Shown here one piece after another: positions 8,525-34,125 of a stretch of DNA of 34,125 nt. The notes beneath the pieces are model-generated. The model searched no databases. It was not told where the DNA came from and saw only the letters and a program-made list of their open reading frames with translations. The DNA is taken from positions 1 to 34,125 of the IMG/VR virus record IMGVR_UViG_2563366806_000008. One strand, written 5' to 3'. How positions within the stretch are numbered: the first letter of the stretch is position 1; the number at the start of each line of letters is the position of its first letter. Origin of the DNA: a virus. Its lineage: Duplodnaviria; Heunggongvirae; Uroviricota; Caudoviricetes. The position numbers and the translations under genes are program-made.

Positions 8525-9751
8525 TCAACCTTTCAATGCTTCAATCGTATTATTAAGTCGACGCAACAGGTCGTCGTACGTCAATATGTCTATCATGTTG
8601 GCGTACTTACGTTTGATTATCTCAAAATCAAGCAACTGACCGTCGGTCATGTTACCGTTCGCTATCTGATCGCGTCCGACAATGATGATGGCTTTTGGGT
8701 TAGATATACGAATACACATTCCCGCTGGCAGAGAATTCTTGTAGGCATTCGTAAGCTCTTTTTCACCCTTAACACCCCATTTAGATAAATGAAAAATATA
8801 CTTTTCAGCCTGCATAATACCGCCGCTAAGTTCTGATGTAGGAATATAGTTATCGCGATAGGGCGTCTTGCGAAGGATCTTATCATCAAACGGCTTTTTG
8901 ACTTCGATGATATCAAGGTTGCCGTTTGCATCCACCAGTGCAATGTCTATAAACCGATTTGTTTTAGCCGAAGGATTAGAGTAATAGTCGAAAATTTTAA
9001 CCTTCTCGAGGACCTTGATATATTTTGGAAAAAGTAATGTGATGAAGGGTATCATCAGGCTCTGCCAGTCATCTTCAGACAAGTTAGTTTTGTTATTCAA
9101 CGCATCCTGGATAATGTCTCTTATGAGTGTATATTTCTCAATTTCGAGCTTATTTAAAACTTCTAAATCCAGTTTGTCGGTTTTTCTGATCACTGTTTTT
9201 CTGTTTAGGTAATGTTCATACCGTTCGCGAGCATCTTTCATACCATCAAGATAACCTGCGAGAATAGCGTGAACCCTTGCATTAGCATAGCGATCCAGTT
9301 CCCCTGTGTTGGGGAATTTACTTTGCAACTCCTGGAATACGCTTTTTGGTATAGCTTCCGGCTTATCTCCTCCGATGATGATGGGATTAGTGTGATCGAG
9401 TAGTTTTGAAAGCCGACCAAAAATGGAGACGTTGCGTTCTGACGCAAATACTTTCCTTTCAAGCTTGATGGACTTATGTATAAGGACATCTCGATTAATG
9501 CTTAGAATCCGTCCCGGAACTGTTATGTATTCATTATTAAGCGTGCCAAAATTAAAGGAATATTCGTAATCATTAAAATCCTGAACGGTTGACGGTGGGT
9601 TTCTCAAGTCCTGGAGTTGAAAGTTAAAAATTCGTGAAATGCATACTGTTTGAAATTTATTTAAACTCTCCCAAACCCAAATTATTTGTTCTCCGCTGTC
9701 ACCGTCGTAAGTCATAACAACGTCATTTGATACAAAGCTGAACTGTAACAT
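8525..9751 (-). CDS. Cargo protein (408 aa): N-terminal domain of unknown function plus C-terminal PD-(D/E)xK / RecB-like nuclease domain; candidate anti-phage effector, possibly Shedu (DUF4263)-like
   Basis: AT-rich ORF in the G/FI slot with good RBS (agagga) before ATG at 9751; motifs FIDIALVD (D269/D274), IIEVKK (E283-x-K285) and QAEKY (Q314-xxx-Y318) match nuclease motifs I, II, III. Confidence 0.6.
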   Translation of the reverse strand: MLQFSFVSNDVVMTYDGDSGEQIIWVWESLNKFQTVCISRIFNFQLQDLRNPPSTVQDFNDYEYSFNFGTLNNEYITVPGRILSINRDVLIHKSIKLERKVFASERNVSIFGRLSKLLDHTNPIIIGGDKPEAIPKSVFQELQSKFPNTGELDRYANARVHAILAGYLDGMKDARERYEHYLNRKTVIRKTDKLDLEVLNKLEIEKYTLIRDIIQDALNNKTNLSEDDWQSLMIPFITLLFPKYIKVLEKVKIFDYYSNPSAKTNRFIDIALVDANGNLDIIEVKKPFDDKILRKTPYRDNYIPTSELSGGIMQAEKYIFHLSKWGVKGEKELTNAYKNSLPAGMCIRISNPKAIIIVGRDQIANGNMTDGQLLDFEIIKRKYANMIDILTYDDLLRRLNNTIEALKG

Positions 9752-10572: not shown

Positions 10573-12501
10573 TTACACCTGTGCGACGTTATACCATGTT
10601 CCATTGATGTATTTTTGTATTGGTCTGAATACTGCGGGGTCATCACCATCGACTTCACCGACAATACCAAGCCCGGTAATTACGTGCCCTGCTTTCTCAT
10701 ACATCACACCTTTTTGCATAGTCTGAACAACACGTGTGCCCAGGCGAATATCTCGTACATAGCGAGAATCCGATTCATCTTTGGTATATGCACCAACATC
10801 TCCCGCAGAGGGTTTGCGGGTTGTGGTGTAAAACTCTGACCAGTCAGCCTCAAATCCATAACCATCACGCGCTGAACGATAATAAATACCGCCGTTCTTA
10901 TAATTCACACGGAACTGTACGGCAGGGCAACTCCCCTCGCTCATATTGAAATGGAGGATTAATGTCGATGCGCCACCAATATTTGCTTGATAGACCCCGC
11001 TATTCCAGTTCCAGCCAACAGCTTTATCATTTCCGACAGTGCTTCCTGTTTTCCCTAAAGCAAATGCAGGCTGCTGGTTTTTCGTGTTGTAGTCTCGTCG
11101 CCAGCCAGGAGCATAAGCATCACCATGATTAATATAAGTGAATTGAGCGTTAGTGGTGCCGCCTCCGGTGGAAGTGCTTGGTGTTGTTACACGGATGGTC
11201 ATGGCACCTTTATTACCCATAACCTCAATAACGCAACCTGCAAGATGAATAGTTCCACAGCCAGTATCGGTAATAATTTTATTATTGCCGTATGACCATG
11301 AACATTTGCACATCCAGTACGGATGATTAAATGCACCACGGGAATCCAGCCATTCAATAAACTGAGCGGTTGTCCAGTTTCCGGCTTCAGTGCTCAAAGC
11401 GCCGCTATAAGCACGACAGGCACCGATATTTTTCGTGAAGGTATCCTTTCCCGGAATATCCGCACCGTTCTGATCTTTCTGAAGACGTTTTTCAGCATTG
11501 TCATAGGCAGACTTCACTGCTTTTGGTGTTGCGGCCAGCGTTTCAGAATCACTGTTGGTGGCGCTACTGAGCTGGACAAGGCCTTTTCGCGCCGTGGTGG
11601 CATCCTGCGCAGTGTATTTCCCGTTAGCAAGGTCATACGCTGTCTTAACCGCCTTTGGCGTTGCTGCAAGCGTTTCAGAATCGCTGTTGGTGGCGCTACT
11701 GAGCTGGACAAGACCTTTTCGCGCTGTGGTGGCGTCCTGTGCAGTGTATTTCCCGTTAGCAAGGTCATATGCTGCCTTTACCGCTTTTGGTGTTGCGGCG
11801 AGCGTTTCAGACGTGCTGTTGGTGGCGCTACTGAGCTGGACAAGGCCTTTTCGCGCTGTGGTGGCATCCTGCGCAGTGTATTTCCCGTTAGCAAGATCAT
11901 ACGCGGCCTTTACCGCTTTCGGCGTTGCGGCCAGTGTTTCAGACGTGCTGTTGATCGCACTGCTTAACTGAGTAAAACCTTTTGCGGTCAGCGAGGCGTC
12001 CGGGTGACGTCGTGACTGTTCATGCTCTGCAATTTTGTCATCAACGTAATCCTGCGTCGCCATCACCGTTGTGGTGTCAATGGTCAGCGCCACTGAGGCC
12101 ACACTGCTGACGATGATGACCATGCGACAGGTCTGCGAACGCCCTGAGCCTTCGGCAAGAGCTGGCTTATAACTTTCGGCCATGTTCGCCACGGCAATTA
12201 ATGTTCCCGCATCATCGTACAGGCCAAGCTCACGCATCCAGAAACCGCCCACCTCCGGCGGAATAACCAGCTCTGCGATAATATAATTACTGTTTCGTTT
12301 GTCCTGGCTGATTTTGTTCAGCGCATGTCGCCAGACTTCATGGATAAGCCCGGTCTGTCCGGCATCCGGGACAGGCAATTTACCACCGCCATCCCCGACG
12401 GCCATCGTGGTAATGTTGACCTTCCGCCCTCCAGGCGCGGTTGCCGCTGCCAGCTTTGCTGCACCGGCAGTGGTGATAACGGTTCTGAATTTTGTGCTCA
12501 T
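10573..12501 (-). CDS. H: Tail fibre protein H (642 aa)
   Basis: N-terminus MSTKFRTVITTAGAAKLAAA... typical of P2-type fibres; internal SETLAATPKAVK fibre repeats; variable C-terminal part. Confidence 0.85.
   Translation of the reverse strand: MSTKFRTVITTAGAAKLAAATAPGGRKVNITTMAVGDGGGKLPVPDAGQTGLIHEVWRHALNKISQDKRNSNYIIAELVIPPEVGGFWMRELGLYDDAGTLIAVANMAESYKPALAEGSGRSQTCRMVIIVSSVASVALTIDTTTVMATQDYVDDKIAEHEQSRRHPDASLTAKGFTQLSSAINSTSETLAATPKAVKAAYDLANGKYTAQDATTARKGLVQLSSATNSTSETLAATPKAVKAAYDLANGKYTAQDATTARKGLVQLSSATNSDSETLAATPKAVKTAYDLANGKYTAQDATTARKGLVQLSSATNSDSETLAATPKAVKSAYDNAEKRLQKDQNGADIPGKDTFTKNIGACRAYSGALSTEAGNWTTAQFIEWLDSRGAFNHPYWMCKCSWSYGNNKIITDTGCGTIHLAGCVIEVMGNKGAMTIRVTTPSTSTGGGTTNAQFTYINHGDAYAPGWRRDYNTKNQQPAFALGKTGSTVGNDKAVGWNWNSGVYQANIGGASTLILHFNMSEGSCPAVQFRVNYKNGGIYYRSARDGYGFEADWSEFYTTTRKPSAGDVGAYTKDESDSRYVRDIRLGTRVVQTMQKGVMYEKAGHVITGLGIVGEVDGDDPAVFRPIQKYINGTWYNVAQV
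11497..11982 (-). repeat. In-frame tandem repeats within H: about 3.7 copies of a 132-bp (44-aa) unit KGLVQLSSATNS(T/D)SETLAATPKAVKAAYDLANGKYTAQDATTAR
   Basis: Read directly from the H translation (residues about 174-335) and the near-identical DNA units starting near 11521, 11653, 11785, 11917. Confidence 0.8.
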
Positions 12502-15010: not shown

Positions 15011-15754
15011 ATGGATAAATATCAAATCTGGGAAAATCAAAAAGACACCATCGCCCACCAAGAGTATTTAAAAATCTCCGACACCAATTTACTTGGACAT
15101 ATGCATATTGCCAATTACGAAGTTGTCCAACATGAATTAAGCAAATTCAACTCCCCTGACATTGTTTCCCGTCATTCATTTAACAGAGACAAATTTAAAA
15201 AAGAACATTTAAACATATCAAGACACCTTTTCAATTATATATCTTCAGCATTATCATTTAGAGATTCAACGCGCAACCTACTTAAAACAAAAGCATTAAA
15301 TATTGCCGACATTAAAATCAAATCAGAGGCATTCATCAATCATGAATTCCGAAATAATCCAGTAATAAAATTAATGGAGGATTTAAGAAACATCCTGACG
15401 CATCAAAACATGATCGCCCCATCAATATCATCATTCATGCACCTCCAAAGAAATATAAACATGCACGGCTTTTCATTTAAGATTGAAAGAATCTTAAACA
15501 ATGACAGAACCACCAAACAAACAAAAGAATATTTAATCTCACTAAAGCAAAAAAACTTATTCATTTTACCGATAATAGAAGAATACCAATACACGACTCT
15601 TAAGTATCAACACTGGCTTTTAGCAAGTATCTACACTGTTCATCAAGATACTTACCAAGAATACTGGAATGCGAGAAAAAACATCATGAACGAATGGGGA
15701 GGAGACACTCAGCTAATACCTAAAGAGAGTGAGCTCACTTATTTAACCAGATAA
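15011..15754 (+). CDS. Cargo ORF of unknown function (247 aa), opposite strand to the late operons; candidate accessory/defence gene
   Basis: Strongly AT-rich ORF with RBS aagaagga before the ATG; Asn/Lys/Ile-rich; occupies the S/V junction (P2 orf30 position) on the opposite strand; contains R126-x4-H131 (RNILTH). Confidence 0.6.
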   Translation: MDKYQIWENQKDTIAHQEYLKISDTNLLGHMHIANYEVVQHELSKFNSPDIVSRHSFNRDKFKKEHLNISRHLFNYISSALSFRDSTRNLLKTKALNIADIKIKSEAFINHEFRNNPVIKLMEDLRNILTHQNMIAPSISSFMHLQRNINMHGFSFKIERILNNDRTTKQTKEYLISLKQKNLFILPIIEEYQYTTLKYQHWLLASIYTVHQDTYQEYWNARKNIMNEWGGDTQLIPKESELTYLTR

Positions 15755-25542: not shown

Positions 25543-26472
25543 TCAAACCAGGCTTTTGCCTTGCTTCATTTTTTTAGATGAGTCTAAAAATTTGAAATTA
25601 TCATTAGATGAAAATATTCTTTCTGCGGTATGCCGAATGACTGAAGTATTGAAGACCGCAGCCTGCTCCTCATTACAACTGAATACACCCTCATGACCAT
25701 CAAACTCGCCCGCCAAAAGAAGGTTTTTTGATACTGGGAACAAAACTAAAGTGTCTTTTACACCAAACCCGGGGGAATAAGGGCCTCGTGCTAATTCAGG
25801 ATTAGTCCACATTAAGCAAACTGGGTTATCTGAAGTTATAAATGACCCTTGCCCATCAGATATGGTCATAAGTGACCAGTTGCGTTGATGCAACAACTTG
25901 GTGATAACAGGTACACATTTCATTTCCATATCTATCATGAACTCTCTGATTACATTGATTTCGAAATTATCCCCATCCACAAAATTTTTAATTTTTTCGT
26001 AAGCGAGATCATATGGCAAAGACTCACCCATTTCTTTCTCATAAGCTAATTTGCAATCGTCCCAACGCTCAGCCGAACTAACTGAGGATTTCATGATAAA
26101 CTTTGCTATTTGTTTCAATGGAGATGATAAATGTTCTCGCTGAGCAGGCGTACGTATTGCCAATAAGGAAATAAACTCCAGAATAACATCTTTGGTTTCG
26201 CCTGAAAACTCGCCCCCCTCCTCAAGTTTTCTTAAATGAGTAGCGACACTGCCTTCAAACTCTGCAAGAGAACTCTCGAGATAGTTTGGGTCAACTCCAT
26301 CCAATTCTAATCGGTTGAAATCTCTAACCCCCCCGACATTGCGAGTATTACTCTCAAAGGTTTTGCGCTCCTTTAAATCTATTACAGTTAATTTTGATTT
26401 TTTCCCCCCATTACTTGTAAACCCTTTCAAATAACATTGGGATAAAAAATGATGATGCCTTGCAACACTCAT
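25543..26472 (-). CDS. DUF4238-type cargo protein (309 aa from Met at 26472); candidate single-gene anti-phage protein
   Basis: AT-rich ORF in the tin/old slot; N-terminal HHFLSQCYLKGF resembles the DUF4238 signature (HH-x-x-P/S-Q-x-YL-x-x-F); RBS ggag before ATG at 26472; ORF extends upstream to 26514. Confidence 0.65.
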   Translation of the reverse strand: MSVARHHHFLSQCYLKGFTSNGGKKSKLTVIDLKERKTFESNTRNVGGVRDFNRLELDGVDPNYLESSLAEFEGSVATHLRKLEEGGEFSGETKDVILEFISLLAIRTPAQREHLSSPLKQIAKFIMKSSVSSAERWDDCKLAYEKEMGESLPYDLAYEKIKNFVDGDNFEINVIREFMIDMEMKCVPVITKLLHQRNWSLMTISDGQGSFITSDNPVCLMWTNPELARGPYSPGFGVKDTLVLFPVSKNLLLAGEFDGHEGVFSCNEEQAAVFNTSVIRHTAERIFSSNDNFKFLDSSKKMKQGKSLV

Positions 26473-26575
26473 ACTCAGCTCCGTTATGGCTATAATCGCA
26501 TAAATAATAAGCACTTATATTGCAATCATCTAGTTAAATACACAATATTTATGACTCCGAAATTTCATTAAATCA

Positions 26576-28789
26576 CTATTGATAGGTTTTACCAATTAGT
26601 GCCAGCTCGAAATGGATGCGTGGAATCTGCGAACGTTCAGCCTTTTTCATCCGCCCTGATGGCGCTATCTGGTACGGTTTTAATGGTTCGCAGTTTCTTT
26701 GTTGCCAATTCGGTCTCGGTGCACCATGTTTTAATGCACTCCTGAGCACCGTCACAACTTCCGGGTCATCCCATCCGATAACACCACTATCAACCAGATT
26801 TAACACCGCTGCGGCATGCTCAGACGGTGTAGGGTGCATAACCGGAACGTCACCGCCGGTGAACTTTCCACAGTTATTGACAGGACTCCGAGGCGCGGCG
26901 ATGCCGCTTTTTAAAGTCAAAGGCTCAACGACCGGCACTTTCGGCACAATGCGCCAGTCCGTCGTTCTGGTGATATGAATATGACGCGCGCCGAGATGCG
27001 GCGCGTAAATGCCGACCACTCTCTCGACTTCTTCCTCGTACTCGTTAACTTCATCCGACGGACTACGGGCGACCCTGACAGTCTGACAATCGCGCGGGAC
27101 ATTTGCCCCGCCCTGCGCGCTGATATACAACGCAAAATCACCACTGTCTGCGGCGGCGCGTGCAACCTCGACGCGTTCGTCAAACTCATCAGCAATGCTG
27201 ACGCCGCGAGGCAATTTGCGTAGTTCACGGTAAGCCCCCATTGTCGGCAGGCCAACCGTTTTAAATTGCGGGATGCGCCACGTTGACGCCCATGCGGTAA
27301 CAGCCGCCGCTGTGTCTTTCAGCGGCCTGCCGGTATCGTTATCGAGCTGACCATCCAGTGCATAGCCGTCGATGTTTTTTGAAATGTATTTCGCGATATA
27401 TCCCGCAGCACCGCCCCGGTTAAGGTGTTTTGCCTGAAAACGGTTTCGCGCAGCTCCTCTTTCGTCTCCATCCTCTTTGAGCGCGTAGCGACGCATGATT
27501 TCGATAATCTGGTTACGCTGGCGTGGATTACAAAAAAGCATCATATGCCAGTGCGGCGTTCCGTCGTGGTGTGGCTCGACGACACGCAAACCGTAGACCT
27601 GTAAATCATTATCCTTGAATGCCGTGCGCATCAGGCTCCAGATGCGGCAGAGATAACGCTGCGCATCCTTTGGATTAAATGCCTCATCGTTCCAGCCGTG
27701 ATTAAGCTGAACGGTTTTACTTTCGCCTTTTCTGACCTGACGTGTCGGGTGATACTTTGACGGCGCGGTCAGCGTGATAAACATCCCCACATCACCCTCT
27801 GCGGCGGCGTAACGCTCAATACCGGCAATGGTGTTCATCAGCTCCATCCGGCGAATTTCAGGATTAGAAATACTGCCCATCACCTTACTGATAAGGTCGA
27901 TGCGCTCGCCGGTTTCCCTGTTTTCAAGGTCACACGATTTAAGAAATTCCAGATTTGCCTGGCGGCGTGCACGCACATCACGAATGGCATGTTTACTGGC
28001 ATAAGGAGAACGGTCTTTATTGACCTCCCCGACAGCAATCAGTAACGCCTCATGCCAGCGCATACGCTGGCCTTTAAGCTGATGAGTCCACCACTCATCG
28101 TTAAACAGACGGGCAATGGCAGAATATGCCTGCCTCGTGGTCATCTGCCCTTTACGGTATTTTTTCCAGTAGAGCGGGGAAATATTGAAAGCACGTGCAG
28201 CGCCAGCAACATGACCATAGAGGTGAGCCTGCGCCTCATCCGTAAACAGCGATTCTTTTTCGCCATGCGCATCCACCCAGGCATCGCTGAGTTCCTCATA
28301 CATCATGAAAAGCTGCGATGAGATACGGGCAGCAAACTTTTTTAGCTCCTTATCATTCATTCCCGGCAGGCGCGCATAGTGGTCACGCTCTGCCAGAAAC
28401 AGTAACGACGCGTCGGTGTTCATTTCATGGCGCTGATTCACACGCTCAATGCGCGGCCATAAACGACGCTGAAAAGTGGATGTGAGGAAATAAAACCCGT
28501 GCACCGGGCTTTTATTGCGCCGGATGTAGTCATAGCGTGAAGTAAACAGCGAGCGCAAAAAGTAAGGCAGGCGGTTAATCGTGGATAAAACACCTTGCAC
28601 CTGACGCATCTCGTCACGTGTAAGGGGTCTTTCGCGCCCGACGGCCTCGCGTGGCGCGTTCCATGCATAAGCACCGGTAAACGCCTTACCGGTGCCTGCG
28701 GCAAATGCTGGCGGAGGGACAAAACGCCCGGAGGCTTTAACGGCCATATGAGCCAAAAGCCTCTGAACAACGCTTGCTGAGTTGCTCAA
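26576..28789 (-). CDS. A: Replication initiation protein A (rolling-circle nickase, 737 aa)
   Basis: Large last gene of the early operon; N-terminus MSNSASVVQRLLAHMAVKAS...; somewhat shorter than P2 gpA as recalled (761 aa). Confidence 0.8.
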   Translation of the reverse strand: MSNSASVVQRLLAHMAVKASGRFVPPPAFAAGTGKAFTGAYAWNAPREAVGRERPLTRDEMRQVQGVLSTINRLPYFLRSLFTSRYDYIRRNKSPVHGFYFLTSTFQRRLWPRIERVNQRHEMNTDASLLFLAERDHYARLPGMNDKELKKFAARISSQLFMMYEELSDAWVDAHGEKESLFTDEAQAHLYGHVAGAARAFNISPLYWKKYRKGQMTTRQAYSAIARLFNDEWWTHQLKGQRMRWHEALLIAVGEVNKDRSPYASKHAIRDVRARRQANLEFLKSCDLENRETGERIDLISKVMGSISNPEIRRMELMNTIAGIERYAAAEGDVGMFITLTAPSKYHPTRQVRKGESKTVQLNHGWNDEAFNPKDAQRYLCRIWSLMRTAFKDNDLQVYGLRVVEPHHDGTPHWHMMLFCNPRQRNQIIEIMRRYALKEDGDERGAARNRFQAKHLNRGGAAGYIAKYISKNIDGYALDGQLDNDTGRPLKDTAAAVTAWASTWRIPQFKTVGLPTMGAYRELRKLPRGVSIADEFDERVEVARAAADSGDFALYISAQGGANVPRDCQTVRVARSPSDEVNEYEEEVERVVGIYAPHLGARHIHITRTTDWRIVPKVPVVEPLTLKSGIAAPRSPVNNCGKFTGGDVPVMHPTPSEHAAAVLNLVDSGVIGWDDPEVVTVLRSALKHGAPRPNWQQRNCEPLKPYQIAPSGRMKKAERSQIPRIHFELALIGKTYQ

Positions 28790-29012
28790 CCTGCGCGTTT
28801 AAATCAGCAAAAGACTTTGCGCTTCCGGTCAGAATATCGTGATGCATCAGGCCGGAAACGAGCTGGCTTAATTTCGGGTAATAACCAACCACCGACAGCC
28901 ATTCCTGACCGGCGTTTTTACCGCTTTCCGCTCTCTTTTTCTCGTGGAGAATAAACTGAAAGCTGTCACTGGTAACGACATAACGTTCGCCAATTTCAAT
29001 ACGAATACTCAT
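28737..29012 (-). CDS. Early-operon small protein (orf83-like), hypothetical
   Basis: 91-aa ORF immediately upstream of A, in operon orientation. Confidence 0.45.
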   Translation of the reverse strand: MSIRIEIGERYVVTSDSFQFILHEKKRAESGKNAGQEWLSVVGYYPKLSQLVSGLMHHDILTGSAKSFADLNAQVEQLSKRCSEAFGSYGR

Positions 29013-29233
29013 GCCGTTCTCCGGTAATGTTTGTTTTTTGCTTCAAAGACTGACTGACAGGAAACACAACGCGTGGCTGACGGATAAGCCGCACGACGGG
29101 CAGCAGGTATTGGCGCATCACACTCTTCGCAAACCAGCGAAGAAACACCGCAATGTTTTACCCTTGCCGCGTTAATCTGGCGCTCCAGTAATTCAGCCTG
29201 TTGTTCCTGAATAAAATCTACGTTGTCCGGCAT
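29009..29233 (-). CDS. TraR/DksA-family C4 zinc-finger protein (orf82-like, 74 aa)
   Basis: CEECDAPIPAARRAAYPSATRCVSCQ: C-x2-C-x17-C-x2-C zinc finger typical of TraR/DksA-like phage proteins. Confidence 0.65.
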   Translation of the reverse strand: MPDNVDFIQEQQAELLERQINAARVKHCGVSSLVCEECDAPIPAARRAAYPSATRCVSCQSVFEAKNKHYRRTA

Positions 29234-29538
29234 TACCAGTTCCTTTTGTCGTTCAGTTTTTTAAATTCATCAGCGCAATAGCTGGCGATTTCTGTCGTTA
29301 ATTTCGTCAGTTCATCCACGGAGGAGATTTGCTTGTGAAACACAGCGCGTTTAACAAGTAAATTGACCACATCAGACAGGAGGTTTAATTCGTTCTGATA
29401 AATCGCGATAACAGACTCAGTTATTTCGCGTTTTTCTTTATCAAGACCAAGTTGAATAAGAGACAAATCGCCATTTTTCATAACGGCGATTTTTAAGGCG
29501 TTATTCAGTAATACAACTGAACGAGAACAGGACATCAA
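29233..29538 (-). CDS. Early-operon small protein (orf81-like), hypothetical
   Basis: 101-aa ORF translationally coupled to neighbours. Confidence 0.45.
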
Positions 29539-29759
29539 AGCACCTCCCCGCGAGACAATCCGATATTGTGAAATTTTTCCGACTCCTGACTGAGCAGCTC
29601 GACTATCTCCACGCGGGATAACTCCGCCTTTGTGATGTGGCGAATCATGGCATCAAGATGAGAAGAAAAGCGCGTCGCAGCGTCGGCCTGTGCTTCGGTT
29701 CTGGCCTGTTGCAGCAGTAATGCGTATTTACCGCACTGATTTTCAGAAACTGTATGCAT
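29535..29759 (-). CDS. Early-operon small protein (orf80-like), hypothetical
   Basis: 74-aa ORF between B and orf81-like. Confidence 0.45.
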
Positions 29760-29822
29760 AACTTTCTCCAGGCAAAAAGAAGCCCCGCACGATTAAGTGC
29801 GTTAAAAACTCTGGTTAATTAC

Positions 29823-30323
29823 TTAATGCAGATATTGCTCTGGTTTTACCGACGTCAGAATTGTCGGTGCATACTCAAACAGGCTGAATAATTCACGTAA
29901 TGCACGGAATAAAGCATCACGCCAGTAACATGACTCTTCATTAATTCGCCAGTATGGCTGGTTGAATTCTTTTTCAGTCAATCCGGCATGCATAAATAAA
30001 GTACGACGCTGACTGACTGTTAAAAAACTAATATATGCATACTCACTTGCGCCAACCTGACGGCGTTTTGAGAATGCCCCACGCAATTCATCAATTGCAC
30101 ATACCAGTCGTTCACGTTCGACATCATTCATTTCTTCAAAACGCATCGTTGCGTGACGCTGTTTTAACTGCGCATGGAAGCAAACCGTTAGCCGTTCACG
30201 TTCCATCATCTGATTATAATAATCGCATGTCTCCTGCCAGCGAGGGACGGCCAGATGCTTACCAATTATCCGGCGCATAGCTGCTGGCTGTTTTTCAACA
30301 AGATTGAGCGTCATCACTGTCAT
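29823..30323 (-). CDS. B: Replication protein B (166 aa)
   Basis: 166 aa as in P2 gpB; RBS ggaggg before the ATG; position between cox side and A. Confidence 0.8.
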   Translation of the reverse strand: MTVMTLNLVEKQPAAMRRIIGKHLAVPRWQETCDYYNQMMERERLTVCFHAQLKQRHATMRFEEMNDVERERLVCAIDELRGAFSKRRQVGASEYAYISFLTVSQRRTLFMHAGLTEKEFNQPYWRINEESCYWRDALFRALRELFSLFEYAPTILTSVKPEQYLH

Positions 30324-30355
30324 TTCCAGACCCTCCGACTTTTCAGAAAGGTCAG

Positions 30356-31576
30356 TGTAGATTCAATCTGTCAATGCAACACCCCTTTCAATTATCTCTT
30401 TCGGTGTTTTGAACTTCAGTGTCTTTCTCGGTCTGTTGTTTAGCTGAGCAGCAACCAGATCTAGTTCATGTTGAGTATATTGGGCAAGACATGTCTTTTT
30501 AGGAAAGTACTGCCGAATTAGCCCATTTGTGTTCTCATTTGTTCCCCGCTGCCAAGGACTCTGAGGATCGCAGAAGTAAACTTTAACGCCGGTGCTGACA
30601 GTAAATTCTAGATGTCTGGCCAGTTCCATTCCTCTGTCCCATGTCAGTGATTTTCTGAGTTCTGACGGTAAACTCAGGAATTTGTCGGTAAGAGCCTGAT
30701 TTACTGAGACAGAATCTTTGCCCCTGAGTCTAAGGATGATCGTATAACGTGATTTTCGGTCTACAAGTGTGGCTATATGAGAGTTTTTTGTACCTGAGAC
30801 TAAATCGCCCTCCCAATGCCCCAGAGAGCGTCTGTTATCGATATTTCGGGAACGTTCGTGAATTGGTGTTCCGTTCACTATGTTAATCGTACCTCTTTCG
30901 CCTTTGCGGGTATGACGCCTGCCATGGCGAAGGCTATGCGACCGTCGCAGATGCTGTATATTCAGGTGGTGTAGCGCTTCACGGCTACGAAAGTACAGCG
31001 TTTTATAAATTGTCTCAGGTGATATTCGCAGCGTTTTTTGACGTGGTTTTGTTCGCCTTAACCATCCTGATATTTGCTCTGGAGACCATTTCATCTCCAG
31101 CTTTTCCAGAACAAGCTTTCGCAATGGTAAATTTTGATCCAGTAAGCACGGTTTTGGCCTTTTCGCCATTCTGTTGGCTCGGTTATTAGCATCAACAGCT
31201 TTGTAATAGCGTCTGCCCCGATTACGCTGAACTTCACGTGAGATCGTCGAAGGACTGCGATTCAGCGCAGTAGCTATCGCACGAATGCTCATTTTGGCTG
31301 ACAAACCAGCTCGTATCTCCTCGCGCTCAGACAGTGTCAGGTGAGCTACAGCCCGCTTACGCTCATGGGGTTTTATGCCGCCAGTATCCCTTAACATAGT
31401 GAAGATCGTTCCGGGTTTTGAACCCAGGATATTCGCTATTTCACTGAAGCCTGTTCCGTTCTTCCATAGTTCAAAAACAGAGGCTTTTTCCTCTGCTGTA
31501 AATGTTCGTCTCATTCAAAAAACCTCCGCAACCCCATGTTTTCACATAACTGTTGCGTTGACCAATTGAATCTACA
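30356..31576 (-). mobile_element. IS30 insertion sequence, 1221 bp, with imperfect 26-bp terminal inverted repeats and 2-bp AG target-site duplication
   Basis: Ends tgtagattcaatctgtcaatgcaaca (30356-30381) and tgtagattcaattggtcaacgcaaca (reverse complement of 31551-31576); flanking AG at 30354-30355 and 31577-31578. Confidence 0.9.
30363..31514 (-). CDS. insI: IS30-family transposase (383 aa)
   Basis: Translation MRRTFTAEEKASVFELWKNGTGFSEIANILG... with HTH N-terminus and DDE catalytic region; 383 aa as for IS30 transposase. Confidence 0.9.
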   Translation of the reverse strand: MRRTFTAEEKASVFELWKNGTGFSEIANILGSKPGTIFTMLRDTGGIKPHERKRAVAHLTLSEREEIRAGLSAKMSIRAIATALNRSPSTISREVQRNRGRRYYKAVDANNRANRMAKRPKPCLLDQNLPLRKLVLEKLEMKWSPEQISGWLRRTKPRQKTLRISPETIYKTLYFRSREALHHLNIQHLRRSHSLRHGRRHTRKGERGTINIVNGTPIHERSRNIDNRRSLGHWEGDLVSGTKNSHIATLVDRKSRYTIILRLRGKDSVSVNQALTDKFLSLPSELRKSLTWDRGMELARHLEFTVSTGVKVYFCDPQSPWQRGTNENTNGLIRQYFPKKTCLAQYTQHELDLVAAQLNNRPRKTLKFKTPKEIIERGVALTD

Positions 31577-31737
31577 AGAGCCTTCTTTAACGGACTCTGT
31601 TTTTTGGTGCGGATAATGATTCCCTTGCGTCCCTTACCGTGGGTAATGGTGAAGTCAATCGCCCTGGGGCTTTCGTTACGCAGTAACTGAGCAATACAAC
31701 GAGGCTCATTCATACGGTTCTCCTTAACGTGGTTCAC
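31577..31737 (-). pseudogene. Small early-operon ORF (orf78-like) truncated at its 3' end by IS30
   Basis: The track ORF 31471-31737 is a chimera: about 53 phage codons then read-through into the IS30 end; re-joining the flanks by hand restores about 12 codons ending at the B start. Confidence 0.4.
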
Positions 31738-31999
31738 CGAGACCTAACCACATCAACCAGCCGTCACGAATCTCTTTAGGGCGGCTTTCATAAGCCAGTT
31801 TTAGTCCGTTATTCCATGCCGGAAGGTATACCCAATATTCACCTGCACGACCTGAAGCTGATTGTGGATCGGTCATATCAATTACAGGCAGCTTTCCTTT
31901 ATCGATCATCCGACGAACCGCTCCTGTCGATTTTCCTATTAGTTTTGCGAACTCCTGATAAGGAATCGCATCAGTCATGAGTGTTACTTGCTTGCTCAT
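31724..31999 (-). CDS. cox: Cox, excisionase and repressor of Pc (91 aa)
   Basis: MSKQVTLMTDAIPYQEFAKLIGKSTGAVRRMIDKGKLPVIDM... with HTH; 91 aa, first gene of the early operon, divergent from C. Confidence 0.85.
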   Translation of the reverse strand: MSKQVTLMTDAIPYQEFAKLIGKSTGAVRRMIDKGKLPVIDMTDPQSASGRAGEYWVYLPAWNNGLKLAYESRPKEIRDGWLMWLGLGEPR

Positions 32000-32036
32000 G
32001 TCGTCCTCCAGCCCTCATGAATTGCGTTTAATGCCT

Positions 32037-32120
32037 TATAATGCCTTTTAGTGCCCACATCCAAGCACTAAACAATCTACATCTAAACTAAATACTATTG
32101 AGATCTAAACACTATGTCAA
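32037..32120. promoter_or_regulatory. Immunity switch: Pc -10 TATAAT (32037-32042, +); Pe -35 TTGACA (32115-32120, minus) and -10 TAGTAT (32092-32097, minus) flanked by two ATCTAAAC direct repeats (32081-32088, 32103-32110) 22 bp apart
   Basis: Motifs read directly; face-to-face promoters with direct-repeat operators flanking the Pe -10 match the known P2 C-repressor operator architecture. Confidence 0.5.
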
Positions 32121-32413
32121 ACACGATAAGCGAGAAGATAGTCTTAATGCGAAAATCTGAGTATTTGAGCAGACAACAACTTGCTGATTTAACAGGGGTT
32201 CCGTATGGCACGCTGAGTTACTATGAAAGTGGTCGTTCAACACCTCCAACAGATGTCATGATGAACATCCTGCAGACCCCACAATTCACCAAATACACTT
32301 TATGGTTCATGACAAATCAGATCGCTCCTGAGTCCGGGCAAATTGCGCCCGCTCTCGCACACTTTGGGCAAAACGAAACAACGTCGCCCCACTCCGGTCA
32401 AAAGACTGGTTAA
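32114..32413 (+). CDS. C: Immunity repressor C (99 aa)
   Basis: 99 aa as in P2 C; N-terminal HTH (LSRQQLADLTGVPYGTLSYYESG); upstream of int. Confidence 0.85.
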   Translation: MSNTISEKIVLMRKSEYLSRQQLADLTGVPYGTLSYYESGRSTPPTDVMMNILQTPQFTKYTLWFMTNQIAPESGQIAPALAHFGQNETTSPHSGQKTG

Positions 32414-32528
32414 CAATTCATCGTGAATATATTCATCACAAGTGCCTACTATTGGTGGCTAAATTTCAGCCACCACGAAAAAAACGATTAGTAGTCGCAA
32501 AAAAACACACCACTCGGAGGGTTTTCTG

Positions 32529-33542
32529 ATGGCAATCAAAAAACTCGATGATGGTCGATATGAAGTGGACATCCGCCCTACTGGACGTAATGGAAAACGC
32601 ATCCGTAGGAAGTTTGATAAGAAAAGCGAAGCTGTCGCTTTCGAGAAATACACGTTGTACAACCACCACAATAAAGAATGGCTATCAAAACCAACAGACA
32701 AGCGACGTCTGTCGGAGCTGACACAGATCTGGTGGGATTTAAAGGGTAAACACGAAGAGCATGGGAAATCTAATCTTGGAAAAATTGAAATCTTCACAAA
32801 AATAACGAATGACCCATGCGCATTTCAAATTACGAAATCGCTTATCAGCCAATACTGCGCCACCCGAAGAAGTCAGGGTATTAAACCTTCGAGTATCAAT
32901 CGTGATTTAACATGTATTAGCGGCATGTTTACAGCCCTGATTGAAGCGGAGTTATACTTTGGTGAGCACCCTATCAGAGGGACAAAAAGGCTTAAGGAGG
33001 AAAAACCAGACACAGGCTATCTCACGCAGGAAGAAATTGCCTTACTGCTCGCAGCTCTTGACGGCGACAACAAAAAGATTGCGATTCTTTGCCTGAGTAC
33101 TGGAGCACGTTGGGGAGAAGCAGCTCGTTTGAAAGCAGAAAATATCATTCATAACCGCGTCACGTTTGTTAAAACGAAAACAAACAAACCACGCACCGTC
33201 CCGATCTCAGAGGCTGTTGCCAAAATGATCGCGGATAACAAACGAGGTTTTTTATTCCCTGATGCTGATTACCCTCGCTTCAGACGAACAATGAAAGCAA
33301 TAAAACCGGATTTGCCAATGGGGCAAGCCACACATGCACTAAGGCACAGCTTTGCCACTCATTTCATGATTAATGGAGGAAGTATTATCACGCTACAACG
33401 GATACTAGGTCACACGCGGATTGAGCAAACTATGGTTTACGCTCATTTTGCTCCAGAGTACCTTCAGGACGCCATTTCTCTTAATCCGCTGAGAGGTGGT
33501 ACTGAGGCCGAGAGTGTCCACACAGTGTCCACAGTAGAGTAA
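32529..33542 (+). CDS. int: Tyrosine integrase (337 aa)
   Basis: 337 aa as in P2 Int; C-terminal catalytic motifs (ARWGE, HALRHSFATH, LGHTRIEQTMVYAH with the Tyr); ends about 70 bp before the att core. Confidence 0.9.
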   Translation: MAIKKLDDGRYEVDIRPTGRNGKRIRRKFDKKSEAVAFEKYTLYNHHNKEWLSKPTDKRRLSELTQIWWDLKGKHEEHGKSNLGKIEIFTKITNDPCAFQITKSLISQYCATRRSQGIKPSSINRDLTCISGMFTALIEAELYFGEHPIRGTKRLKEEKPDTGYLTQEEIALLLAALDGDNKKIAILCLSTGARWGEAARLKAENIIHNRVTFVKTKTNKPRTVPISEAVAKMIADNKRGFLFPDADYPRFRRTMKAIKPDLPMGQATHALRHSFATHFMINGGSIITLQRILGHTRIEQTMVYAHFAPEYLQDAISLNPLRGGTEAESVHTVSTVE

Positions 33543-33611
33543 CGTTTAAGGGCTTTCAGTGGTCATTTATGCCGCTCAAACCCGCATTGTACCGTTGAAA
33601 GCCCCTACTGA

Positions 33612-33638
33612 TGACACCCTAAATCTCCCTTACACGGG
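33612..33638. repeat. Prophage attachment core, right copy (int-proximal junction)
   Basis: Exact 27-bp copy of 1507-1533; here followed by one extra T and the inverted repeat gggcttat / ataagccc. Confidence 0.8.
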
Positions 33639-33807
33639 CTTATTTTTTTATGCATAAGCCCTATCTCTGGTAACCGTCTTCCATTGACCACATCGATAGA
33701 ATCCTCCTTCATAGCACGATGCCTTTCACTTATCGGCATCGTGCTCCCACAGGTTCCGGCTACGCACAGCCAGAACGCGCATATTTGACGCTTACCAAAA
33801 AATATTC

Positions 33808-34125
33808 TCACTCTCCACATTTGAATGTCAGACGAGCGACACCATGTAATCCTACACCTTCTGTCTTCAGCTCAACTATTTGCATTTTTTTGCCCTGAGT
33901 AACACAGAAATGAGTTGCATCATTTTTTACTATATTTTCTGCACCAGATATTCTACCCCTGGCTAAAGAAGCTTCGGCTTCGGTGTAGTATTGGTTATCG
34001 AGTTTACGCTGAATATTACTTTTATATGCAAGACCAAATTTACCGATACTTGTCTCATCATTATGCACAGCACAACCAGACATAATAAAAATACTAATTA
34101 ATGATATAGCAGCTATCTTTTTCAT
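33808..34125 (-). CDS. yegR: Small lipoprotein (105 aa), probably host gene yegR
   Basis: MKKIAAISLISIFIMSGC: signal peptide plus lipobox; position just outside the prophage as for yegR next to the K-12 ogrK/yegZ remnant; identity from memory only. Confidence 0.5.
   Translation of the reverse strand: MKKIAAISLISIFIMSGCAVHNDETSIGKFGLAYKSNIQRKLDNQYYTEAEASLARGRISGAENIVKNDATHFCVTQGKKMQIVELKTEGVGLHGVARLTFKCGE

Follow-up and report, generated by a model that had tools for sequence, protein, structure and literature searches.

A near-identical copy of the bacteriophage P2 lysis/lysogeny switch in a prophage with IS30 in its early operon

Genes and regulatory elements at the switch

This analysis concerns a 34,125-nucleotide stretch of viral DNA (IMG/VR record IMGVR_UViG_2563366806_000008), referred to here as the window. 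Toward the end of the window, cox and C are placed divergently on either side of a gap of 114 bp. The cox gene (31724 to 31999, minus strand), taken from the list of open reading frames (ORFs), encodes a 91-amino-acid (aa) Cox protein (Pfam Phage_Cox, E value of 5.5e-48) and stands first in the early operon, which is read from the promoter Pe. Cox is the lytic repressor of the opposing promoter, Pc, and also the directionality factor for excision. C (32114 to 32413, plus strand) encodes a 99-aa immunity repressor with a helix-turn-helix (Pfam HTH_3) and heads the lysogenic operon read from Pc. The second gene of that operon, int (32529 to 33542, plus strand), follows C on the same strand and encodes a 337-aa tyrosine integrase (Pfam Int_N and Phage_integrase).

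A promoter scan of positions 31600 to 32600 returned Pe as the sole promoter-like site. This promoter runs toward cox on the minus strand, from 32120 to 32092, and consists of a −35 hexamer TTGACA (32115 to 32120), a 17-nucleotide spacer, and a −10 hexamer TAGTAT (32092 to 32097), together matching the consensus at 10 of 12 positions. The −35 hexamer (32120 to 32115) shares the TG of the C start codon (32114 to 32116). Pc, the promoter of the C-int operon, faces Pe from the cox side, such that the two promoters converge between the divergently placed genes. Its −10 hexamer, a perfect TATAAT at 32037 to 32042 on the plus strand, was recognized by direct reading, while its −35 hexamer, ATGAAT (32017 to 32022, plus strand), is a poor match to the consensus. 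Pc did not pass the promoter scan, which found no usable or recognizable −35 for it; this outcome fits the description of Pc in P2 as the weaker promoter, detectable only when Pe is inactivated (PMC1904263).

The Pe −10 hexamer sits between two half-sites for the C repressor, each of which reads ATCTAAAC on the plus strand (O2, 32081 to 32088, and O1, 32103 to 32110) and GTTTAGAT on the strand of Pe. The half-sites lie 22 bp apart, start to start, and ATCTAAAC has no further copy elsewhere in the window on either strand. The original prediction, made from the letters of the window, had described two identical 8-mers 22 bp apart around a candidate Pe −10 TAGTAT, a perfect TTGACA across the C start codon, and a perfect TATAAT for Pc on the cox side, and each of these elements was recovered here at the positions given above. 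In addition, a scan with the cox-box consensus TTAAA(G/C)NC(A/C) located three phased sites on the minus strand, at 32023 to 32031 (9/9), 32032 to 32040 (7/9), and 32042 to 32050 (8/9). With a phasing of 9 to 10 bp, these cox-box-like sites cover the −10 hexamer and the spacer of Pc. An Rfam scan of the whole window detected no RNA family at the switch, the only match being CyaR, which lies at the other end of the prophage.

Prophage boundaries and attachment sites

The switch belongs to a prophage that occupies positions 1507 to 33648, is colinear with P2 at 86 to 99% identity (blastn), and is bordered by yegQ (1 to 1362) and yegR (33808 to 34125); the match to P2 extends no further than 33648. 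The 27-bp att core is present in two perfect copies (27/27 each versus P2), at 1507 to 1533 and 33622 to 33648. At the int-side end (33508 to 33648), the core is preceded by a P′ arm (33508 to 33534) that matches P2 at 27/27 positions and by a Cox site (33532 to 33605) that matches at 73/74. At the Ogr-side end (1507 to 1596), the core is followed by an integration host factor (IHF) site (1532 to 1565, 33/34) and a P arm (1569 to 1596, 26/28). The claim that the prophage keeps the capacity for excision is thus supported at the sequence level, by the cores at both ends, the P′ arm, and the Cox site.

The CyaR (RyeE) small RNA (sRNA) gene, at 1445 to 1530 on the plus strand (Rfam RF00112, 100.7 bits), has its 3′ end inside the att core at 1507 to 1533. 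As such, the phage integrates into, and re-creates, the 3′ end of an sRNA gene. A literature search for CyaR as an attachment site of P2 gave nothing useful.

Comparison with phage P2

A megablast search with positions 31700 to 32560 retrieved phage P2 (AF063097/NC_001895) and several Peduovirus genomes at 99.2 to 99.3% identity over the full length of the query. In the P2 record, the Pe-Pc region spans 25884 to 25987, and its six annotated elements map to the window as follows: the Pc −35 (25982 to 25987) to 32017 to 32022, the Pc −10 (25962 to 25967) to 32037 to 32042, O2 to 32081 to 32088, the Pe −10 to 32092 to 32097, O1 to 32103 to 32110, and the Pe −35 to 32115 to 32120. The elements described above therefore equal the AF063097 annotations base for base, as anticipated by the claim that the region matches the known P2 arrangement. 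Between 31990 and 32130, the window and P2 are identical at 138 of 141 positions, and all three differences fall outside the promoter hexamers and operator half-sites. These are a C in place of the P2 T at 32009, between the cox start codon and Pc; a C in place of T at 32034, in the Pc spacer and at the N position of a cox-box; and a T in place of C at 32113, which is position −1 of the C start codon and also lies in the Pe spacer.

The regulators are equally close to those of P2. C is identical at 99/99 residues to P2 C and to the protein whose crystal or nuclear magnetic resonance (NMR) structure is available (PDB entries 2XCJ and 2L49), Cox is identical at 91/91 residues to P2 Cox and PDB entry 4LHF, and Int is identical at 335/337 residues to P2 Int, with both changes being conservative. 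Intact C, cox, and int genes, as described in the original prediction, were accordingly found. In overall design, the two switches share the gene order int-C/cox-orf78-B-A, convergent Pe and Pc promoters, two half-sites at 22 bp around the Pe −10, a Pe −35 that lies over the C start codon, and cox-boxes over Pc. The window differs in the substitutions at 32009, 32034, and 32113, in two residues of Int, and in carrying an IS30 element in orf78, 0.5 kb downstream of Pe.

For P2 itself, the function of these elements has been examined experimentally. P2 C recognizes two 8-bp direct repeats that flank the Pe −10 and whose centers are 22 bp apart (PMC1904268; PMC2995052), and its recognition helix has been defined by alanine scanning (PMC2995052). 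A single half-site cannot be bound by P2 C; P2 O1 reads GTTTAGAT, the reverse complement of ATCTAAAC, and its replacement with ATCCGAGT abolishes both repression in vivo and C binding in vitro (PMC1904263). Primer extension products obtained with P2 agree with the starts that had been presumed for Pe and Pc (PMC1904263). The repeats and promoters named in the original prediction are therefore, in P2, a binding site of C and the sources of the expected transcripts. P2 Cox protects at least 70 nucleotides that contain cox-boxes of the sequence TTAAA(G/C)NC(A/C), spaced 10 to 11 nucleotides apart over Pc, and at higher concentration it spreads toward Pe (PMC3936717).

Conservation among related loci

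Conservation was assessed across 80 IMG/VR loci with a gene for C or a close relative. O1 is identical in 79/80 of these relatives, as is O2; the Pe −35 is identical in 80/80 and the Pe −10 in 78/80. The Pc −10 reads TATAAT in 74/80 and TATAGT in the remaining six, which are diverged in C (84 to 87% identical) and on the cox side. In these six relatives, the segment at 32081 to 32113 keeps 29 to 33 of its 33 bases, in comparison to only about 55% identity for 31990 to 32080, and residues 31 to 39 of C, which form the recognition helix, are unchanged. The block of operators and Pe thus covaries with the reading head of the repressor rather than with the neighboring sequence.

The alleles that set the window apart from P2 are also present in this set, with C at 32009 in 28/80 relatives, C at 32034 in 32/80, and T at 32113 in 4/80. 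The C at 32034 creates a perfect 9-bp direct repeat, TAATGCCTT, with a spacing of 10 bp over the Pc −10 (32029 to 32047, plus strand), and this change makes two neighboring cox-boxes more alike.

A P2-type cox-switch segment occurs in 397/5,426 complete Escherichia coli genomes. Over the switch, the Peduovirus phages P22H1, P22H4, and P24C9 and a prophage in E. coli strain Res13-Lact-ER01-35 (NZ_CP062901) are 99 to 100% identical to the window. The NZ_CP062901 prophage shares the yegR site and the DUF4238 cargo gene with the window and is free of IS30; over 31577 to 32130, the two are 100% identical, including the T at 32113.

Alternative explanations and identity of the switch

Taken on statistics alone, neither the 8-mer repeat nor the weak cox-boxes reach significance. 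The window contains 33 pairs of exact 8-mers in direct orientation 9 to 30 bp apart, compared to 14.3 ± 4.7 in dinucleotide-preserving shuffles, with 4 pairs in the window at a spacing of exactly 22, and the operator 8-mer itself is present two or more times in 21 of 100 shuffles. Cox-box sites at the 7/9 level arise by chance at about 3.7 per 140 bp, and one promoter-like match per 1 kb does not exceed expectation. Given how frequent 7/9 cox-boxes are, only their pattern and homology count, and their agreement with the literature is a matter of consistency and not independent proof. The figures for the 8-mers and the promoter would suit a reading in which the motifs came together by chance in an AT-rich intergenic region and there is no regulatory switch. 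However, the motifs fall exactly on six P2 features that were annotated independently and have been studied experimentally, the regulators on either side are identical to those of P2, and the motifs are kept in the 80 relatives, diverged ones included; a chance origin is, in our judgment, extremely improbable. What raises the finding above chance is this homology to annotated P2 elements along with the conservation in 80 related loci, motif statistics being insufficient for the purpose.

The same comparisons bear on two readings that accept a switch and assign it a different status. One would regard it as a decaying remnant, in which the three substitutions, especially the T at position −1 of C, weaken C or the balance of Pe and Pc and leave immunity leaky or lost. 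The T at 32113 is indeed a minority allele (4/80), and with IS30 in the early operon, selection on lytic functions would be relaxed. Nonetheless, the NZ_CP062901 prophage, otherwise complete, has an identical switch over 31577 to 32130, T at 32113 included; since that prophage is free of IS30, the allele is older than the insertion and is found in a phage that seems intact. Furthermore, no hexamer, half-site, or codon is changed, and the intactness of all other genes points to a recent insertion with little decay. We consider a decaying switch to be very improbable. The other reading would place the switch in a different P2-like immunity class (W-phi-like, Hy dis-like, or 186-like) that shares only its layout with P2, an option raised by the existence of at least seven immunity classes with a common convergent-promoter layout among P2-like coliphages (PMC1904263). 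W-phi and P2 Hy dis resemble the window in having a small C that acts on two direct repeats at Pe, convergent promoters, and Cox as the counter-repressor (PMC1904263; PMC1904268). The W-phi half-sites, however, are 10 bp long at a distance of 34 bp, and those of P2 Hy dis are 8 bp long at a distance of 26 bp around the −35, and their sequences differ as well, whereas the window has the P2 values; moreover, the C proteins of these two phages are 43 to 63% identical to P2 C (PMC1904268). The CI/Apl switch of 186 (pR-pL) is likewise built from convergent promoters, one lytic and one lysogenic, and its excisionase-type protein works both at the switch and at att (PMC7498355). The window contains no 186-type CI, CII, or Tum. 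In 186, CI is a larger repressor of an unrelated type, CII provides an establishment function, and SOS induction operates through Tum. With P2 half-sites at 22 bp and a C protein 100% identical to P2 C, assignment to another class was discarded outright.

We therefore hold it to be nearly certain that the window holds the lysis/lysogeny switch of bacteriophage P2, in a prophage of P2 immunity that is inserted between yegQ/cyaR and yegR. An apparently intact P2-type switch had been predicted; with 138/141 identical positions and fully identical C and Cox proteins, the locus proved to be the P2 switch itself. As judged from the sequence, this copy, nearly unchanged with respect to coliphage P2 and located in an E. 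coli-type chromosome, is real and most likely functional. The DNA identity and conservation were established here, and C binding, transcript starts, and Cox action are carried over from the work on P2. The switch is already known, having been annotated in GenBank for P2 and characterized biochemically and structurally, and it is not new. The discovery value is accordingly small, as this is a classical phage regulatory circuit whose proteins have solved structures. For annotation, the result assigns the prophage to the P2 immunity class: the host should be immune to P2 and, given this class, open to derepression by P4-type satellites.

Expected operation of the switch

Extrapolating from P2, transcription from Pc (−10 at 32037 to 32042, plus strand) would begin near 32049 and yield C and then Int, while transcription from Pe would begin near 32085 on the minus strand and yield Cox, orf78, B, orf80 to orf83, and A. 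With these start sites, the transcripts would share a head-on overlap of about 35 nucleotides. In the lysogen, C dimers would sit on the two GTTTAGAT half-sites, separated by two helical turns with the Pe −10 between them, thereby shutting off Pe and relieving the interference that it exerts on the weak Pc. Should Pe escape, Cox would polymerize on the phased cox-boxes over Pc and turn off C and int, and Cox, Int, and IHF together would direct excision at att.

IS30 insertion in the early operon

An IS30 element occupies 30356 to 31576 on the minus strand. It is 1,221 bp long, encodes a 383-aa transposase (30363 to 31514) with HTH_38 and rve domains, has inverted repeats of about 26 bp, and is bordered by a 2-bp CT target duplication; many E. 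coli genomes contain annotated IS30 copies that are 100% identical to this one. Its orientation is that of the Pe operon, and it interrupts orf78 at the 3′ end, with the B start codon following 31 bp downstream. The insertion replaces the last ten codons of orf78 and removes the overlap of the orf78 stop codon with the B start codon, and the ribosome-binding site of B is intact. Beyond the element, the remaining genes of the Pe operon (26576 to 30323, minus strand), namely B (29823 to 30323), orf80 to orf83, and A (about 26591 to 28747), were recovered at full length by tblastn without stop codons. B is 98.8% identical to its P2 counterpart, and A is 94% identical over residues 1 to 719 and has a variant C terminus. 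The original prediction had called the early operon IS30 disrupted; the insertion is real, with the refinement that it resides in orf78 and not inside B or A.

Apart from IS30, no lesion is visible, and the P2 genome is otherwise complete. The 99%-identical NZ_CP062901 prophage, at the same chromosomal location, has this site unoccupied, and the IS30 junction was found in 0/5,426 complete E. coli genomes and 0/80 IMG/VR loci. Given its absence elsewhere, the insertion looks recent and strain specific.

The consequences for early transcription can be outlined from the arrangement of genes. Since cox lies upstream of IS30, the output of Cox from Pe should be untouched. A scan of 30250 to 31750 detected no promoter, and B, orf80 to orf83, and A would be transcribed only through read-through of the 1.2-kb element, a possible polar effect that could plausibly impair replication. 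The suggestion in the original prediction that the prophage may replicate poorly is in this respect reasonable. We also looked for features of IS30 that might modify this picture. A fusion promoter at the end of an IS element is an established concept (PMC9330008), and the B-side end of IS30 does have an outward TTGACA in its inverted repeat; however, the hexamers located 15 to 19 nucleotides downstream (GACCTT, ACCTTT, CCTTTC, CTTTCT, and TTTCTG) include no −10-like partner, and this candidate was rejected. An intrinsic terminator inside IS30 in the direction of Pe was likewise rejected, as a scan of the minus strand found no terminator-like hairpin, which means that read-through from Pe could be substantial.

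In P2, replication requires both A and B, as does the expression of late genes through Ogr, and the P2 late genes can be activated directly by P4-type satellites. If these two points apply here, the prophage could still immunize its host, excise, and serve as a satellite helper. The phenotype predicted from the position of IS30 is a prophage that would be immune, able to excise, and impaired in replication.

Read-through from Pe would also reach the transposase gene. The diverted orf78 frame enters IS30 and meets a stop at 31471, with the start of the transposase ORF at 31514. IS30 may therefore be under indirect control of the phage repressor C. Combining these points leads to a speculative proposal, which we regard as rather unlikely, that the Pe-oriented IS30 uncouples the two halves of the early operon, allowing Cox to be made without efficient replication and placing IS30 transposition under the control of C. 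Were it true, derepression would lead to Cox production, excision, and activation of P4-type satellites without efficient P2 replication, and the prophage would be "grounded", that is, kept for its immunity, its defense cargo (Shedu and DUF4238), and possibly its help to satellites. The transposase would then be under Pe read-through, with transposition repressed by C in the lysogen and switched on after derepression of the prophage. The locus offers a natural test case for the grounding of a prophage by an insertion sequence in the early operon that leaves immunity and cargo defense genes in place.

Gene content and cargo loci

Of 41 P2 proteins tested with tblastn, 37 match the window without stop codons, and all essential P2 genes are full length. 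The nonessential P2 genes orf30, fun(Z), tin, and old gave no tblastn match, and neither did orf91. At the P2 fun(Z) locus, the window carries a gene for a 408-aa Shedu defense protein, SduA (8525 to 9751, minus strand; PADLOC PDLC04067, E value of 1e-219; Pfam SduA_C). Beside cos, old and tin are replaced by a gene for a 323-aa DUF4238 protein (25543 to 26514, minus strand), which matches the PADLOC model DUF4238-Pers (PDLC03000, E value of 2e-219). A 247-aa ORF (15011 to 15754, plus strand) is situated at the nonessential orf30 locus of P2, the third classical variable locus; it has no Pfam or PADLOC match and may be an uncharacterized cargo or defense gene. Outside these loci, the C-terminal two-thirds of the tail fiber protein H (10770 to 12501, minus strand) and roughly the last 40 residues of the replication protein A (26576 to 26750, minus strand) are unlike P2. 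These differences, together with the missing orf91, are the usual mosaic variation of P2-like phages.
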